From contig JAHQWJ010000120.1 of assembly GCA_029856125.1 (NCBI GenBank), positions 1 to 64,000 of the forward strand: a DNA stretch of 64,000 bases, read 5' to 3'. Position 1 is the first letter of the stretch. Each line of letters starts with the position of its first letter. The position numbers were made by a program, and so were the translations under genes. Under the pieces are notes generated by a model that ran no database searches, had not been told where the DNA came from, and was given only the letters and a program-made list of their open reading frames with translations. This DNA comes from Promethearchaeia archaeon. GTDB taxonomy: Archaea > Asgardarchaeota > Lokiarchaeia > Sigyniarchaeales > SOKP01. Below, piece after piece: positions 32,704 through 40,221 of this stretch.

Positions 32704-33936
32704 GTGTTTAATTTGGAAAAAGTTGCGATTATAGGAGTAGGACACACTAAATTTGGAAAGCTCCAAGATAAAGGTTTAATGGATTTATTATGCGATGCTT
32801 CGTTAGAAGCAATTCAAGATTCAAACACCACTGATAAGAACTTTGATTCTGTTTATGTCGGTGCCATGAGTCCCTCTGCCTTCATTAATTTATCTGGGGT
32901 CGCAAGTGCTTTAGTAGATAAAATTGGGTTAATTCCTGCTGCTGCAGATCATATCAAAAATGGACCTGCCAGCGGTGGTTCTGCTATAAAAGCTGGATTT
33001 CAAGCGATTGCATCAGGAATGAGCGATTTAGTTTTGGTTGTAGGGGGGGAAAAAATGACTCATATAACAACTCCTGGATACGTCACCTCAAATGTGGCAA
33101 CGTTAACGCACCCAGAAGCTGAAAGACGACACGGTGTCTCACTTCCTTCGTTTGCGGGATTACTAACGAGAGCATATCTCGAGAAATATGATGCAAAACT
33201 AGATTGGATTTCCGATATCGCAATTAAAAACCATAAGAATGGCGCTTTAAATCCAAACGCTCATTTTCAGAGAACAATTAATAGTTTTATGGAAAGTGCA
33301 ATTGATAAAGGAAAAGGATCTTGGGATAATGTATATGAATTCCTAAATGACGATAAGACAAATCCGATAATTGCTGATCCACTGAGACTTTTTCATGTTT
33401 GCCCGATTTCGGATGGTGCGGCTGCTTTAGTCTTATGTAATGCTGAAAAAGCAGAAGAATATTGCGATACACCAATTTTAATTTCGGGTATTGGACAAGC
33501 AACAGATACCCAAATAGTATTTGAACGTGAGGAACTTACCACTCTGAAAGCTTTAAGAATATGTTCTAAACAAGCTTACAAGATGGCTCATAAAGCCCCA
33601 AAAGATATGGATGTAGCCGAATTACACGATGCTTTTGAAATCCTTGAGGCAGTGCAGAGCGAGGATATAGGGTTCTTTCGTAAAGGCGAGGGTGCCAAAG
33701 CTGCTCATGAAGGCCAAACAGAGATTGGAGGTAAAATCCCCATTAATCCTTCAGGGGGATTGAAAGCAAGAGGTCACCCACTTGGGGCTACTGGAGTCGC
33801 TCAGGTTGTAGAATTGGTGTGGCAGTTAAGGGGAGATGCGGGTAAACGACAAGTTGATGGCGCTGAAACGGGAATTACATGTAATTTTGGGGGATTTGGC
33901 AATAATATCATTTCAATATTGGTAGAGAGAATGTAA
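32704..33936 (+). CDS. SCP2-type/archaeal thiolase-domain protein with atypical active site
   Basis: CPISDGAAA, ELHDAF, NPSGGLKARGHPLGATG; NGPASG where NxCASG is usual. Confidence 0.88.
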   Translation: MFNLEKVAIIGVGHTKFGKLQDKGLMDLLCDASLEAIQDSNTTDKNFDSVYVGAMSPSAFINLSGVASALVDKIGLIPAAADHIKNGPASGGSAIKAGFQAIASGMSDLVLVVGGEKMTHITTPGYVTSNVATLTHPEAERRHGVSLPSFAGLLTRAYLEKYDAKLDWISDIAIKNHKNGALNPNAHFQRTINSFMESAIDKGKGSWDNVYEFLNDDKTNPIIADPLRLFHVCPISDGAAALVLCNAEKAEEYCDTPILISGIGQATDTQIVFEREELTTLKALRICSKQAYKMAHKAPKDMDVAELHDAFEILEAVQSEDIGFFRKGEGAKAAHEGQTEIGGKIPINPSGGLKARGHPLGATGVAQVVELVWQLRGDAGKRQVDGAETGITCNFGGFGNNIISILVERM

Positions 33937-33962: not shown

Positions 33963-35873
33963 TTAATTGGATTCTAATTCTGCTATTTCTGTTTTAAAAA
34001 GGTTAGCAATCGTAAGCCAATTTTGTTTTGTTTCAAAATCTGATTTACTCTTCTCTGCAAATTTAATACCTGATTCCAATCTATCGATTGCTAACTTAAA
34101 CTTACCGAGTTCTTTATAGCAAATCCCAAGCTTGATGTGCGTTTGGAACGTATACCATTCTTCTGAGCCTATTTCGATAGCTTTGAGAAACTCATTTTTA
34201 GCGTTTTCATAATCTTGGAAGGACATTAAGATTTCACCATATGTATCGTGATAAATGCCGTTATCAGGATCTTGTTCAATTAGGTTTTGAAGTATTTCAA
34301 CCGCTTCTTCTTTTCGGTTTAAATATTGTAACCAATAAACTTTGTAAGTAAGAAGTTTTGTATCGTCCGTATATTTTTCGAGCAATTCATTAATAATGTT
34401 AAACCCTTCTTCTATATCTCTCTTCTCTTTAAGGATATATGCTACCTTAATCTTGATGTCCTTCTCTTCATCGGGGAATCTTTCGAGCATTTCATCTAAA
34501 AATGGTAGTAATTCATCGTATTTGTTAAAATAAATTAACACGCGCTCTTTGGCAACATAGGCGTCAAACTGGTCAGGATTTATGCTAAGGGCTTCGTTTA
34601 CTTCTTTGATGTTCTCATCGTAATTTGTGAATTCTTGAACTAAAAATTTCTTAGACCTATAGGTTTGTACTTCGTGCCATATTAAACCTTTTAACTTGTC
34701 ATAAGTGTCAATCAACTTCTTCTCTTTTTCAACTTTGTAGGCCAAGTAAGCAATATAACTTGGTAACAATCTCTTTAAAGAAGAACGCTGACCTTCCTGA
34801 AAAAGAGAACCGCATACTTCGTCTAATATCGCGTCTATTGTGGACTCTAAAGTTGTTGAGTAGGTCTTATCTTTATCCTCTTCGTACAATTTATTTAAGT
34901 ACGTGAATTTTGTGATATGTTCTTCGACTATAGCGTTCAACATCGTTTCAAGCTTTTCATTAACCTGGAAATAATATATCTCATCATCATCTTCTTCCAA
35001 TTTGAAAAACTTAATAGGAAATATCTTTTTATCAATAATTTGCAGGACGTGAAACTCTAACACCACCAATTCTAACCCATATTTTTTAGCAAATTTCTCA
35101 GTTGAAATAGAGATGGGATATTGTGATGGATGATTGAGGGATAAATATAGAAGTATTTTGAAGAAATCTTCTTCACTTTTTAAAGATTGCTTGATTCTTT
35201 CGTGGGGTAATCTTAAAAGGTTATTGAGAAATCGAAATCTAGTTTCATCTTCAATGATTCTATATTTTTTAAAGAATTTTAGTGTTTTTTTTGTAACTTC
35301 TTTAATTCGATTGCTTTCTTCTTCCAAAATCGACTGACGGTCTAAATCATAATCCCTCAGCATTACAGAATATTCAGCTTTACCCAATTGAGTAATTCTA
35401 TACTCTTTATTTTCTTTTTTTACAATTCTGTCTTCAATTAAGGAGTTCATATTTTTGGATAAAGAAGAATTATTAATTGAAAGGGGTTCATTTAAAAAAT
35501 CTGCCCATTTACAGAATGTATTATTATATACCATCCAGAGTATCCAATGATCGTAATTTCTTTTCCACAAAATTGCTTTCGGGGGGTAATTTAACTTCCT
35601 TTTTTGTCTCGTGGCCTGTGATAGTTCATAAAATCTATCTTGTCCTTTAGTTGTTATCGTGTATTGATTAAATTCTCTCTTTTTAATTAATTCTGTTAAT
35701 AGAAGCTTTTTTAGATAAATTGATAAAGTAGAAGGTTTAATTTTTTTTTTTAAATTAGACCACGTACATACTTTGTTGTTATTGAGCATCCAGAGTATTA
35801 CTAATTCAAAGTTAATCTTACCAAAGATCGGCTCTATAACCTCTTTAGGGGGGTAATTAATTGGAGAAGACAT
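33963..35873 (-). CDS. Tandem winged-HTH plus C-terminal TPR protein
   Basis: Two repeats (ILWM..NN..C.W...STLS....L......K....Y.IT..G) and TPR motifs such as PDNGIYHDTYGEIL. Confidence 0.78.
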   Translation of the reverse strand: MSSPINYPPKEVIEPIFGKINFELVILWMLNNNKVCTWSNLKKKIKPSTLSIYLKKLLLTELIKKREFNQYTITTKGQDRFYELSQATRQKRKLNYPPKAILWKRNYDHWILWMVYNNTFCKWADFLNEPLSINNSSLSKNMNSLIEDRIVKKENKEYRITQLGKAEYSVMLRDYDLDRQSILEEESNRIKEVTKKTLKFFKKYRIIEDETRFRFLNNLLRLPHERIKQSLKSEEDFFKILLYLSLNHPSQYPISISTEKFAKKYGLELVVLEFHVLQIIDKKIFPIKFFKLEEDDDEIYYFQVNEKLETMLNAIVEEHITKFTYLNKLYEEDKDKTYSTTLESTIDAILDEVCGSLFQEGQRSSLKRLLPSYIAYLAYKVEKEKKLIDTYDKLKGLIWHEVQTYRSKKFLVQEFTNYDENIKEVNEALSINPDQFDAYVAKERVLIYFNKYDELLPFLDEMLERFPDEEKDIKIKVAYILKEKRDIEEGFNIINELLEKYTDDTKLLTYKVYWLQYLNRKEEAVEILQNLIEQDPDNGIYHDTYGEILMSFQDYENAKNEFLKAIEIGSEEWYTFQTHIKLGICYKELGKFKLAIDRLESGIKFAEKSKSDFETKQNWLTIANLFKTEIAELESN

Positions 35874-36117
35874 AACTTAGGATCATTTAGTTTATCTTTT
35901 TAGATTTAAGTTATATTGGGTTGTGAGTTTATTTATACATTACGGTCTAAAAGAAATATGGAACTCCAATTATAATTATGTAGTATAAACATTTAGTAAA
36001 CTTAATCCACCGATAATATAAACAATCTTGTAAATCGATTTAATACTAAAGTTTTATATTAAAAAAAAAACCTACATTATAGTAAGAAATATTTCATGTA
36101 ATTCTTGAAGACTAGCA

Positions 36118-36669
36118 ATGAGTGAAGCAAGCAAAAAATTTAGGTTCAAAATAACTGTTATTGGAGATGGAGCAGTAGGTAAGACATCTCTAATCCAAAA
36201 GTTCACTAATGATAATTTTAAAGAGGATTACATCAAAACCATTGGAGCTCAATTTTCTATATTTGATAAAAAAATCGATGGAGATAAAATAAAGTTATTA
36301 TTCTGGGACATCGCTGGTCAAGACGCTTTTAATTTTTTAAGACCTTCATTTTTTAAAAACAGTGTTGCTGCAATAATTGTGTATACACTTGAAGAAAATG
36401 AACTTGGGGAAGAAAGTTTTAAAAACATTCATAATTGGGATGTAGATATTAAAAAATATTGCGGAGATATTCCTGTAGTAATTTTTGGAAATAAAGTAGA
36501 TTTGATAAATGAGAAGCAGTTAGATACATCAGCTGTCGAAAAAATTGTTAAAGAAAATAACTACTTGGGATATTTCATTACTTCAGCAAAAACGGGGCAT
36601 GGGGTAATTGATGCATTTGATGCGATTATTGACGTGTTATATGTTAAATATAAAGACATGCCCGTTTAG
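36118..36669 (+). CDS. Rab-like small GTPase (Ras superfamily), no prenylation cysteines
   Basis: GDGAVGKTS, TIGAQF, WDIAGQ, NKVD, TSAK. Confidence 0.93.
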   Translation: MSEASKKFRFKITVIGDGAVGKTSLIQKFTNDNFKEDYIKTIGAQFSIFDKKIDGDKIKLLFWDIAGQDAFNFLRPSFFKNSVAAIIVYTLEENELGEESFKNIHNWDVDIKKYCGDIPVVIFGNKVDLINEKQLDTSAVEKIVKENNYLGYFITSAKTGHGVIDAFDAIIDVLYVKYKDMPV

Positions 36670-36696
36670 AAGAACTTTTTTATCAAATTTCATGGG

Positions 36697-37779
36697 TTAT
36701 TTTTCTAAGTAATCAGGAACGAAATCAAAATATTCTTCTACTAGCGTTCTCGCCTTTTTAAATCTACTAACTTCATACATACCGCCAAAATGAGACTTGA
36801 ATTTATCAATGAACTCAGAATTGAACTTCTTAAGTCCATAACGCAAAGATTTAGATGATTTTGTTGTAACCAAAACAGAAGCAACCGGAAAATTCTTATT
36901 GTGTTCAATTAAAAGGACTGCTCGGTCCATTTTGATTTCCCGTACTTCCCCTTTCTTTAATAATTCGTCTAAAATGCTACCCACTGCTTGGAGTACCATA
37001 GTAAAGACATTCTCGTCTATTACTCTCAATTTTGCCCAATCGTGTTTAAATAATCCAATGCCCGCATTCGTCTCAACAACCAAAAGTCGATAAGCTTTAA
37101 AGGGAAGGATATAAATGATTTTAGGTTCTTTCCATATAACTATAATTGTAAATAATGCTCCTAAGCTATGAGTTATAAAACCTAATGAATTGAACATTTT
37201 AATAAAAGTTCCTAAAAAATACAGCGTTGCCGTGACAAATGAAAATAGAATGCTGCCAAACAACAAAAAGTTGACAAGTTGTTTTAGTTCACTCGGAGCT
37301 CTTTTCCAAGTGAGAAAACTCCAACTAAAATAGGTAATTACGTAATAAAAGAGGAAAATAATCTGAACAATTCTAAGAGCGCCAACAATATGGACGCCAT
37401 AACCAGGTATAATTAGCATACCTCCAGGCGTAATATATAAGTATAGCATTATAATCTCAATTAAAAGCACAATCGTAATCTTAACTGAACTCACGCGTTC
37501 TTTTTTAATTAGGTCTATGAATATAAAAAGACAGGGAACGCCAATTATTTGTGGAATAATCGCAAGAGTCATTAGTAGGGGTGAATAAAAAAGATGCGAG
37601 GCTGCGTCTAAAGCCCAAAAAAAAGATTGTAATAACCAATTTGCTGAAAATAAATACACTAATCGATTTTTTCTTTTTTTCGCGTAAGAAAATGAAAGCA
37701 AAAATCCAATAATGTTCAACACACCTGCTACTGATGCAGATGTTACTAATAAGATATTATCAAAACTAATCATTTTCAC
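36697..37779 (-). CDS. 7TM membrane protein fused to a C-terminal longin-like domain (paralog 1)
   Basis: Seven hydrophobic segments in aa ~5-216, then YRLLVVETNAGIGLFKHDW...VREIKMDRAVLLI...LKKFNSEFIDKF...FDFVP. Confidence 0.78.
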   Translation of the reverse strand: MKMISFDNILLVTSASVAGVLNIIGFLLSFSYAKKRKNRLVYLFSANWLLQSFFWALDAASHLFYSPLLMTLAIIPQIIGVPCLFIFIDLIKKERVSSVKITIVLLIEIIMLYLYITPGGMLIIPGYGVHIVGALRIVQIIFLFYYVITYFSWSFLTWKRAPSELKQLVNFLLFGSILFSFVTATLYFLGTFIKMFNSLGFITHSLGALFTIIVIWKEPKIIYILPFKAYRLLVVETNAGIGLFKHDWAKLRVIDENVFTMVLQAVGSILDELLKKGEVREIKMDRAVLLIEHNKNFPVASVLVTTKSSKSLRYGLKKFNSEFIDKFKSHFGGMYEVSRFKKARTLVEEYFDFVPDYLEK

Positions 37780-37801
37780 CTTCTTTCAATCAAGTTTTTG
37801 T

Positions 37802-38884
37802 TTATATAATTTCACTTTTATAACTTGGGACAAAACCGAATACCTGTTCAACTATTTTTGAACCCTCGACGAAATCACTAACTTTTCGTGAATCTTCTAA
37901 AGTCTTTTGAAATTGTGTAACAAATTCTTCGTTAAATCTCTTTAATCCATATCTCAACGATTTCGAAGATTTAGAGGCGATTAAAACAGATGCAATAGAA
38001 TTCTCGTTGTTGTGGTTGATAAGAATTACAGCTCGATCCATTTGGATTTCTTGGACATCACCTTTTTTTAAGATATCATCTAGAACACTTCCAATAGCTT
38101 GGATCATCATAGTAAAGATATTTTCCTCAACTTCTCCTGCTTTTGCCCAATCATATTTAAACAAGGCCACGCTTGCTATCGTGTCAACTACTAAAATACG
38201 ATAAGCCTTAAAAGGCAAGATATAAATAATTCTGGGATCTTTTAAGATAACCAAAATAGTGATGAACGCTCCAATTCCATTAACAAAGAACCCTATAGCA
38301 TTAAATACTTTTATAAGTGAGCCTATTGCATACAGTACCCCTGTTACAATTGAAAAAATAGTGCTGCCAAATAGCAAATAACTTGTTAAGCGTTTTAAAT
38401 CCGCAGGAGCCTTACGCCAGGTATGAAAACTCCATAAAACATAAAAAATCATGAAGTAGAAGAGGTAGATAATTTGCACTATACGAAGTATGCCTTTATT
38501 ATGAATGCCATATCCAGGAATGATTTCCCAATTATTTGGTACGTAAAAAGTGACGAGAAAAACTAAAGCTTCGATAATCATAAGTATTGAAAATTTAACT
38601 GGACTAACATGCTCTTTTGTGCTAAGTTCGATAAAAATGATAATACACGGAACTCCTATCAGTTGTGGAACAATTGCTAAGGCCATTAGTGGTATTGAGT
38701 AAAGATAATGAGCTGCAGCATCTATAAACCAAAAAACAGCATACATTAACCACATTGCGGAAAATAAGAAAATAAGCCGATTTTTATTTTTAAAAGCATA
38801 AATGAATGTAATAATACCTCCAATTGCTACTAATGTCCCCGTTATTAAGGTCGATAATACGAGCAGTAAATTTTCAATACTCAT
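37802..38884 (-). CDS. 7TM membrane protein fused to a C-terminal longin-like domain (paralog 2)
   Basis: Same length (360 aa) and colinear with 36697-37779; shared IIPGYG, IIYILPFKAYR and SSKSLRYGLK blocks. Confidence 0.78.
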   Translation of the reverse strand: MSIENLLLVLSTLITGTLVAIGGIITFIYAFKNKNRLIFLFSAMWLMYAVFWFIDAAAHYLYSIPLMALAIVPQLIGVPCIIIFIELSTKEHVSPVKFSILMIIEALVFLVTFYVPNNWEIIPGYGIHNKGILRIVQIIYLFYFMIFYVLWSFHTWRKAPADLKRLTSYLLFGSTIFSIVTGVLYAIGSLIKVFNAIGFFVNGIGAFITILVILKDPRIIYILPFKAYRILVVDTIASVALFKYDWAKAGEVEENIFTMMIQAIGSVLDDILKKGDVQEIQMDRAVILINHNNENSIASVLIASKSSKSLRYGLKRFNEEFVTQFQKTLEDSRKVSDFVEGSKIVEQVFGFVPSYKSEII

Positions 38885-39334
38885 TATAATTTTTTTTTAT
38901 ATTTTTTGGCGCTTTACTAATCATTGTTCTTCAGGAAAGAACTTTGCGAGGACTTAAAACATAACTGATCTCTAATTAAATAAATATTGTTTTATTCCTA
39001 TTTAAAAGATTATTCATTATTGTAAATATTTCCTTTAAAATGTCGCAAATCATTAAAAAATTTAAATGAATATATCCAGAAAAAGATATAAAATGTAAGT
39101 TTTGGGTTATTTTTTATTTTACTAAAAGAGCCGCTCTATTCTATTATTATTAAACAGTCCAGCTCTAATTCAAGATTCCAATTAAATTACATTTTTGTAA
39201 ACTAAATATGTAAATTTGCTAATATAATTATTAACAAAACATGAAACAGAAGAGAGTGAAATATTATAACATTAACGAAGCAAAAAGAAATAGATGTAAA
39301 CCACAATGGTGGAATATTACTAGAGAATAAAAGA

Positions 39335-39493
39335 ATGAAAAAATTGTTGAGATACTGTAAGGAAAGGCAATCGCGAGCTTCCTGGACTCCAGAGATGAAG
39401 TTTAATGAATGTAAACATTCTATCTTTAGATTTTATCCAGAAAAGTACATGATTATCGACGGAAGATGTTATAATTTTTCATGTTTGGGCTAA
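39335..39493 (+). CDS. Possible 52-aa protein with four Cys
   Basis: Manual translation MKKLLRYCKERQSRASWTPEMKFNECKHSIFRFYPEKYMIIDGRCYNFSCLG; no family recognised. Confidence 0.3.
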   Translation: MKKLLRYCKERQSRASWTPEMKFNECKHSIFRFYPEKYMIIDGRCYNFSCLG

Positions 39494-39569
39494 TTGAGGA
39501 TGAGGGCGTCTCAAATAAATTAGAATCCATAAAGGCTCCAAGACTCTAATCAAAATTTAATTTTCAAAA

Positions 39570-39761
39570 CTAAATATGTACTGCTACTGATAGCATAATA
39601 ACGAATACGAAAAGAATAAGTGAGTATATTAAGTATGCTCTACATGCTGAAAATGACGTAGTCAAAATTTGGCTACCACTTCTAAGAGCGAGGTTAATAA
39701 GGGTTGTGGGCGAAGTTAACTTTATTAATTTTACAAGCTTGTTTTTTTCGATTCGTGCCAA
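39570..39761 (-). CDS. Possible small protein with C-terminal hydrophobic helix
   Basis: TTG-start ORF in otherwise empty region; YLIYSLILFVFVIMLSVAV tail. Confidence 0.3.
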   Translation of the reverse strand: MARIEKNKLVKLIKLTSPTTLINLALRSGSQILTTSFSACRAYLIYSLILFVFVIMLSVAVHI

Positions 39762-39858
39762 TTAGATTGTGAATTGGATTTTTTTTATTTCCTAGCTTAA
39801 TATTTCTAAATAATGTCATATTATATTTCATTAAGTTTATAGAAATTATAAATTACAG

Positions 39859-40221
39859 ATGGGATTAGTGACTACTGAAGAGAATATCATTTGGCACAAA
39901 TGTATAAATTGTGGCTTGTTGCAACATAACACTCATCTAAGATGTTTAAAATGTAAGAACGATGATTTTGAGATTATTGAAGCTTCAGGCACATGCAAAC
40001 TACTCACTTATACAATCTTAAAAGCACCCCCTGCTGAATTTCGAGATAAGGCGTCCTATGCTCTTGGAGTTGTGGAATTTAAAAATGGTGTAAAAGGACT
40101 CGGTCAATTAACAACTCAAAATAATTTATACACAGGAATGACATTAAAACCAATTTATCGAAAAATTTGCGAAAACTTAGACGGAAAGGAAGTATATACT
40201 TATGTGTTTGAACCAGTTTAA
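39859..40221 (+). CDS. DUF35 zinc-ribbon/OB-fold acyl-CoA-binding protein (thiolase partner)
   Basis: KCINCG...RCLKC, LLTYTI...PPAEF...YALGVVEF..G. Confidence 0.88.
   Translation: MGLVTTEENIIWHKCINCGLLQHNTHLRCLKCKNDDFEIIEASGTCKLLTYTILKAPPAEFRDKASYALGVVEFKNGVKGLGQLTTQNNLYTGMTLKPIYRKICENLDGKEVYTYVFEPV

Follow-up and report, generated by a model that had tools for sequence, protein, structure and literature searches.

Two paralogous Asgard membrane proteins with a predicted longin-fold domain, and candidates for their cytoplasmic partner

The genomes of Asgard archaea contain dozens of genes for Ras-superfamily GTPases, together with many for longin and roadblock proteins, and to our knowledge these GTPases carry no lipid anchors. 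How, then, might such a GTPase be brought to a membrane? The question is raised by a locus in the 64,000-nucleotide stretch of DNA analysed here (positions 1 to 64,000 of contig JAHQWJ010000120.1, assembly GCA_029856125.1, from a Promethearchaeia archaeon of the Sigyniarchaeales; hereafter the window). In it, two adjacent open reading frames (ORFs) of 360 amino acids (aa), here called parA (36697-37779, minus strand) and parB (37802-38884, minus strand), lie beside the gene of a Rab-like small GTPase (36118..36669, plus strand). Both proteins combine a seven-helix membrane domain with a domain of predicted longin fold, and such a fusion could provide the membrane end that is still missing from the picture of Asgard GTPase switches. 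The reading we prefer, to which we give about even odds (roughly 0.5), is that parA and parB make up a membrane-anchored, probably dimeric longin platform, with small GTPases as the leading candidates for its cytoplasmic partner.

The paired proteins and their two domains

An earlier reading of this DNA (the original prediction) described two co-oriented paralogs of 360 aa, and the ORFs are exactly as it claimed. parB is followed on the same strand by parA, with 22 nt between them, and the two proteins are 55% identical over their full length (195/355 positions, E 3e-145). Neither parA nor parB has a match in Pfam or NCBIfam. An AlphaFold2 model of full-length parB, built on 26 homologs, has a predicted local distance difference test (pLDDT) score of 85.9 and a predicted template modelling (pTM) score of 0.83, and contains seven long helices followed by a C-terminal domain with the order b-b-a-b-b-b-a-a (b, strand; a, helix). 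The helices, which had been proposed from their hydrophobicity, occupy parB residues 1-215 (38240..38884, minus strand), where pLDDT is above 90, and correspond to parA residues 1-217 (37129..37779, minus strand). A beta-hairpin formed by parB residues 119-129 stands in the outer loop between transmembrane (TM) helices 4 and 5. Among 80 diverse family members, the segments after helices 1, 3, 5, and 7 carry on average 2.8, 2.3, 3.5, and 1.6 lysine and arginine residues, against means of 0.03-0.66 at the N-terminus and in the remaining loops, a distribution that places the N-terminus outside the cell and the C-terminal domain in the cytoplasm. Structure prediction thus shows parA and parB as N-out/C-in seven-transmembrane (7TM) bundles, each joined to a cytoplasmic longin-fold domain.

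The C-terminal part of parB (residues 216-360; 37805..38239, minus strand) opens with the linker KDPRIIYILPF and closes with an F.F.P motif. The corresponding part of parA (residues 218-360; 36700..37128, minus strand), likewise a linker and a longin-fold domain, aligns with it at 57% identity, and the junction motif of parA, as found in parA orthologs, reads IWKEPKIIYILPF. A separate model of the isolated domain, built from 52 sequences of about 30% identity (pLDDT 83.6), has strands at domain residues 14-21 and 26-32, a helix at 41-61, strands at 66-68, 73-79, and 84-90, and a helix at 95-111 followed by C-terminal helices, a predicted succession that is the b1-b2-a1-b3-b4-b5-a2-a3 order of longins.

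Structural searches with the isolated domain led to the same fold. Nearly all of the top 50 Foldseek matches in the PDB were longins (best E 7.8e-4), among them TRAPP Bet5/Trs23, the AP sigma and mu subunits, Mon1-Ccz1, sedlin, VAMP7, Ykt6, Sec22b, zeta-COP, and Fuzzy-Inturned; the whole parB model reached an E of only about 0.02, with G protein-coupled receptors (GPCRs) and longins mixed. With VIA, synbindin scored Z 13.6 (root-mean-square deviation (rmsd) 2.8 over 124 residues), followed by VAMP7 (13.0), Sec22 (12.5), the CPLANE-complex chain 7q3d_C (12.1), AP-3 sigma (12.0), and SRX (11.0), with Mon1/Ccz1 and BLOC-3 at Z of about 9. All of the top 31 VIA matches were longin-type (Z 8.8-13.6), while the roadblocks (MglB, MglC, MP1, and Asgard Roadblock3), whose fold is related, scored 7.6-8.7, 4-5 units under the longins. 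Foldseek and VIA on the domain alone bear out the longin-like soluble C-terminal domain that had been proposed, and the longin fold holds at the level of prediction. Each 360-aa chain has one such domain.

For the membrane half, the best VIA match is human alkaline ceramidase 3 (ACER3; Z 15.5, rmsd 3.5 over 196 residues, 17% identity), and adiponectin receptor 2 scores Z 12.2. These matches are what one would expect if the 7TM half had a catalytic or transport role, such as that of a CREST-type intramembrane hydrolase of the alkaline ceramidase or PAQR kind, with the longin domain only regulating or scaffolding it. However, GPCRs of many classes and de novo designed GPCR-like bundles score almost equally (Z 12-14.6), a range that is usual for helical bundles. 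TM7 of parB (residues 193-215) contains no histidine, let alone a histidine pair, and the residues of the CREST metal site are lacking. An active site common to the family should have been conserved, yet none of the polar TM residues is, and we consider a catalytic or transport role highly improbable. Since the Z values are those usual for helical bundles and the CREST residues are missing, we read the membrane half as a generic 7TM bundle only.

Extent and conservation of the 7TM-longin family

An exhaustive HMMER search recovered a 7TM-longin family of 576 clusters at 50% identity, of which 467 have E values of 1e-10 or lower, and nearly all members are 340-440 aa long. Of 400 Asgard genomes, 206 have a member, and 59 of 85 genera are represented. 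The Atlas clusters of the family are 100% archaeal and, where the source is named, the proteins are hypothetical proteins of Lokiarchaeota/Promethearchaeota, Hodarchaeales, Thorarchaeota, or Hermodarchaeota; so far the family has been seen in Asgard archaea only, and neither Pfam nor NCBIfam has a model for it. Five members are encoded in this genome: parA, parB, two forms of 429-436 aa, and a distant one. The parA/parB pair is present in 11 of the 42 genomes of its genus, always with both genes, and tandem copies are also found in other branches of the family, with three genes at one locus (L054) and two at another (L068).

Conservation differs between the two halves. In the TM half only P161, K165, G174, and G206 are conserved family-wide. 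W247 and F350 are 100% conserved, many positions of the linker and longin half exceed 80%, and the linker is near-invariant (E/D-P-K/R-hydrophobic-x-Y-I-L-P-F, typically EPKLxYILPF). The original prediction had drawn attention to polar motifs in the membrane domain (DAA.H, PQ.IGVPC, LRIVQ, and IIPGYG), and these are indeed conserved in the close clade of the pair, but the TM half of the wider family is almost without a conserved residue. As a sequence pattern, a membrane module that varies, coupled to a cytoplasmic module that does not, would fit a sensor family, and a plain anchor fits too.

The same logic of a variable 7TM part and a conserved cytoplasmic output is known from the prokaryotic 7TM sensors (7TMR-DISM_7TM, PF07695; HisKA_7TM, PF16927), in which the output is a kinase, cyclase, or HD domain, whereas in the 7TM-longin family it is a longin. 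PF07695 matched 3 of 80 members weakly (best E 0.0026), and HisKA_7TM is found in the nearest named Atlas clusters at scores of 0.86-0.87, with both results lying under the reliability line; PF16927 had no match in this genome with E values up to 10 allowed. GPCRs share with parB an N-out/C-in 7TM bundle and a beta-hairpin in an outer loop, at the Z values given above. No sequence relation between the family and GPCRs was found, and the Pfam 7tm models matched neither the window proteins nor the 80 family members.

For the cytoplasmic half, the closest known systems are the eukaryotic longin platforms (TRAPP Bet5/Trs23, Mon1-Ccz1, BLOC-3, CPLANE, and SRX of SR-alpha bound to SR-beta), which have the same b-b-a-b-b-b-a-a fold as the parB domain. 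Paired paralogous subunits are typical of these platforms. parA and parB are not members of any of them at the sequence level, and differ from them in that the longin domain shares one chain with a polytopic membrane domain, a direct fusion that the eukaryotic platforms lack. Their likeness to the eukaryotic longins that act as guanine nucleotide exchange factors (GEFs) is one of predicted fold.

Asgard archaea also have soluble longin, roadblock, and Rag-like proteins (PDB 8yqg, 9jue, 8yl2, and 9m28), which belong to the same phylum and fold superfamily. The Asgard longin, roadblock, and Rag-like proteins studied by Tran et al. 2024 (PMC10933270) are soluble, whereas the 7TM-longin family is membrane-integral; Asgard proteins expressed in HeLa cells in that study showed no membrane targeting, and the word "transmembrane" does not occur in it. 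The 7TM-longin fusion is described neither there nor in the Liu 2020 preprint, Dey 2016, Kostlbacher 2026, a 2026 structural-clustering preprint, or a 2026 review of GPCR origins, a coverage that leaves aside the asCOG supplementary tables. The architecture is real at the level of structure prediction, and within the searchable literature it is undescribed.

Linkage of the pair to small GTPases

The gene next to parA encodes a protein of 183 aa whose identity as a Rab-like GTPase is clear. It matches Pfam Ras at 1e-41, its G1-G5 motifs are intact (GDGAVGKT, DIAGQ, NKVD, and SAK are read from the translation), and among proteins of known structure it is closest to Rab21, Rab9A, and a Thorarchaeota Rab (E about 5e-27 to 5e-28), with Rab35 and Rab8A also among the top matches. 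With all five motifs and Rabs as its closest relatives, it belongs with the Rab family, as had been claimed. Its tail, KYKDMPV, contains no cysteine and offers no prenylation motif, in agreement with the claim that it is not prenylated. About six close paralogs are encoded in this genome. The gene converges on parA with a stop-to-stop gap of 27 nt, so that coordinates and motifs both agree with the earlier description. On its other side lies a divergent gene for a 636-aa protein with two winged helix-turn-helix (wHTH) domains and a tetratricopeptide repeat (TPR) region (HTH_TPR; 33963..35873, minus strand; Pfam TPR and winged-helix matches), and the two genes have a 244-nt upstream region in common.

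From this arrangement the original prediction took the parA/parB heterodimer to be a membrane GEF, gated by a ligand, that would recruit the adjacent GTPase and activate it by a GPCR-like logic. Several observations are consistent with it. The longin fold matches the domains of heterodimeric longin Rab GEFs (the TRAPP core, Mon1-Ccz1, BLOC-3, and CPLANE), Fuz_longin_1 (PF19036) matches 2 of 80 family members below threshold (best E 0.00096), and the adjacent GTPase lacks a lipid-anchor motif. Moreover, the 10 close loci (L001-L010) all share the order parB-parA-GTPase (convergent)-HTH_TPR, and at a further locus (L015) the pair and the GTPase lie within 2.4 kb. Set against this, the thiolase, HTH_TPR, DUF35, and mutase genes are syntenic in the same 10 loci, and because the whole neighbourhood is conserved there, the adjacency of pair and GTPase is not independent evidence. 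Because the genes converge, the pair and the GTPase do not form one transcript. The proteins also have a single longin domain per chain, in contrast to the three of tri-longin GEFs.

The GTPase, in turn, is found without the pair. Its recurrent neighbour is HTH_TPR rather than parA/parB: elsewhere in this genome (G000:C12; L117 3270-8533) an HTH_TPR paralog of 46% identity is divergent from a small membrane protein, a TPR protein, and a Rab-like paralog, and at five loci of other genomes of the genus (L122-L126) Rab-like GTPases flank HTH_TPR, in each case with no 7TM-longin gene. A 135-aa ORF at the G000:C12 locus was considered as a longin and rejected, as it is the small membrane protein. 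In the sister genus, the closest Rab-like relatives are located elsewhere in the genome and not at the parB ortholog.

The strongest single result on linkage comes from a genus mate whose genome is 100% complete (G268). Its locus consists of the thiolase, HTH_TPR (87% identity), GTPase (84%), and DUF35 genes in that order, with HTH_TPR and the GTPase detected as full-length tblastn matches. A BLASTN comparison of G268 with L004 shows a clean gap of 2.49 kb, at L121 10395-10401 (G268:C56) against L004 5650-8141, in which both 7TM-longin genes are gone and 47 nt of the parA 3' end are left. The pair was deleted as one unit while the GTPase and HTH_TPR stayed. The L004 contig (DATKTW010000167.1) is titled as a Nanopelagicaceae bacterium metagenome-assembled genome; its DNA is 93.6-96.5% identical to the Asgard contig L121 of G268 across the locus, and the proteins it encodes share about 85-89% identity with their counterparts in the window, which suggests that it is probably mis-binned.

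A different GTPase accompanies the gene in the sister genus. There, in 4 of 4 genomes, a gene for a 321-aa Rag-like GTPase lies 170-220 nt downstream of the parB ortholog on the same strand, in an otherwise different neighbourhood; the 7TM-longin gene concerned groups with parB in the tree (support 100/98). The Rag-like neighbour matches Pfam Gtr1_RagA at 2.5e-25 and PDB 8yl2, the Lokiarchaeota RagA-like protein LokiRagO, at E 7.7e-76, which makes it a close relative of this solved structure. The ortholog of the Rag-like gene in this genome is located elsewhere (G000:C63:164068-165030, 72% identity). The pair clade is therefore found beside a GTPase in 2 of 3 contexts, once Rab-like and convergent and once Rag-like and co-oriented. 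Since the Rab-like context is the one that drew attention, we left it uncounted, and we estimate the chance of GTPase adjacency in one of the other two at about 0.09, which is suggestive only. The Rag-like adjacency keeps a generic link to GTPases possible. A parallel is found in Ragulator-Rag, a membrane-anchored scaffold of roadblock/longin type that holds non-lipidated GTPases (PMC5680233). In that system (Ragulator/SLC38A9/Rag at the lysosome) the anchor is a lipidated subunit, whereas in parA and parB it is a fused 7TM domain, and a Rag-like neighbour of a 7TM-longin gene is seen only in the sister genus.

The wider family gives little sign of such a link. We scanned 60 wider-family loci from many genera with a small-GTPase hidden Markov model (HMM) built from this genome, where it finds 79 ORFs in 3.69 Mb, or about 2.4% of genes. 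An adjacent GTPase was present at only one of the 60 loci (L077), and the 12 GTPase ORFs in the roughly 780 kb of sampled loci, flanks included, correspond to the background density of the genome. The conserved linkage to GTPases that had been anticipated was kept in the close loci and echoed by the Rag-like gene of the sister genus, but the sampled loci of the wider family show no enrichment of GTPases, and G268 retained the GTPase without the pair. Convergent genes, the single wider-family locus, the HTH_TPR/GTPase loci without the pair, and the G268 deletion together speak against a GEF for the adjacent GTPase. We regard that proposal as unlikely, and the adjacent Rab-like GTPase was probably a wrong first guess for the partner.

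In the platform reading that we prefer, parA would probably dimerise with parB on the membrane. The variable 7TM half would serve as the sensor of a signal, or simply fix the protein in the membrane, and the partner of the longin half would be a soluble protein of the cytoplasm. Judging from all well-studied longin systems, that partner would most plausibly be one of the approximately 80 small GTPases of this genome, none of which is lipid-anchored. The two wider-family counts just given weigh against this reading, and other points must be set beside them. The low constraint on the TM half suits a plain membrane anchor as well as a sensor. No Pfam longin model matches the window proteins, and a search of the whole genome with PF19036 at E up to 10 left 36697-38884 untouched; comparing the family profiles with PDB sequences likewise gave nothing meaningful. 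No fusion of the longin domain to a GTPase or to any other domain was found, which is weak evidence; no longer proteins with this domain were found, and shorter matches were mostly fragments on short contigs. Finally, the only conserved neighbour in another subfamily is a wHTH-like protein and not a GTPase.

A more ambitious form of the platform reading, which we consider unlikely, would make the parA/parB heterodimer a signal-gated receptor whose paired longins recruit a non-lipidated GTPase to the membrane and switch its nucleotide state, the GTPase being Rab-like in this genus and Rag-like in the sister genus. If true, this would be an archaeal receptor-to-GTPase relay made from parts that eukaryotes later used for Rab and Rag control, and it would answer how Asgard GTPases reach membranes.

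Winged-helix neighbours and other genes of the locus

The wHTH-like neighbour accompanies a 7TM-longin subfamily of 429-440 aa with a C-terminal extension of about 75 aa, which includes two of the members in this genome (subfamily loci L089 5869-8165, equal to G000:C126:226869-229165, and L090 381-2429 on G000:C4). A co-oriented gene for a wHTH-like protein of about 240 aa lies immediately upstream at 15 loci, with gaps of 2-80 nt, and immediately downstream at one (L088). No other conserved neighbour turned up in any branch of the family, and in the window HTH_TPR is two genes away from the pair. This distribution is consistent with a role of the family in signalling to transcription, in which the longin domain would hold or release a winged-helix regulator at the membrane, here HTH_TPR, possibly with its GTPase. 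However, the wHTH proteins of the two contexts have no sequence similarity, so that the partner of the 435-aa subfamily was rejected as a relative of the window HTH_TPR. The Pfam match of the wHTH-like protein (PF24266) is borderline, at 31.6 bits against a cut-off of 31, and archaeal genomes generally have many HTH genes. The 16 loci all belong to a single taxonomic family and are not independent, and HTH_TPR persists without the pair in G268 and at many paralogous loci. We consider a transcriptional output of the family to be improbable. Near the L089 locus there is also an EAP30/Vps36-like gene.

HTH_TPR and its GTPase are better viewed as a unit of their own. Close HTH_TPR homologs are present in 32 of the 42 genomes of the genus, and proteins of about 636 aa with the wHTH-wHTH-TPR architecture recur together with Rab-like GTPases of about 180 aa (window 33963-36669, L117, and L121-L126), the genes being divergent or flanking. 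This recurrent unit is a candidate for a separate module that links the GTPase to a transcription regulator.

The thiolase-like gene (32704-33936) and the DUF35/OB-fold gene that is its usual partner (39859-40221) are split in the window by the block of HTH_TPR, GTPase, and 7TM-longin genes. In other genomes of the genus, the interval between thiolase and DUF35 instead holds one or several HTH_TPR/GTPase units, at times arrayed one after another.

This genome also carries two copies of a tight cassette (L119 264-3237 and 12933-15806, on G000:C8) that encodes a 166-aa protein without a Pfam hit, two 7TM proteins of about 217 aa, and a 298-aa Arf-family GTPase. A Rosetta-stone link between the cassette proteins and the two domains of the 7TM-longin proteins was rejected at an hhalign probability of less than 1%, in a comparison of single sequences against profiles that makes for a weak test.

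The 974 nt upstream of parB (38885..39858) presumably hold the promoter of the parB-parA pair. This stretch contains no ORF longer than 63 aa and no Rfam match, and a scan for promoters of the sigma-70 type, a type that does not apply to archaea, did no better than on shuffled sequence. A gap of comparable length, about 970 nt, is also present at L001.

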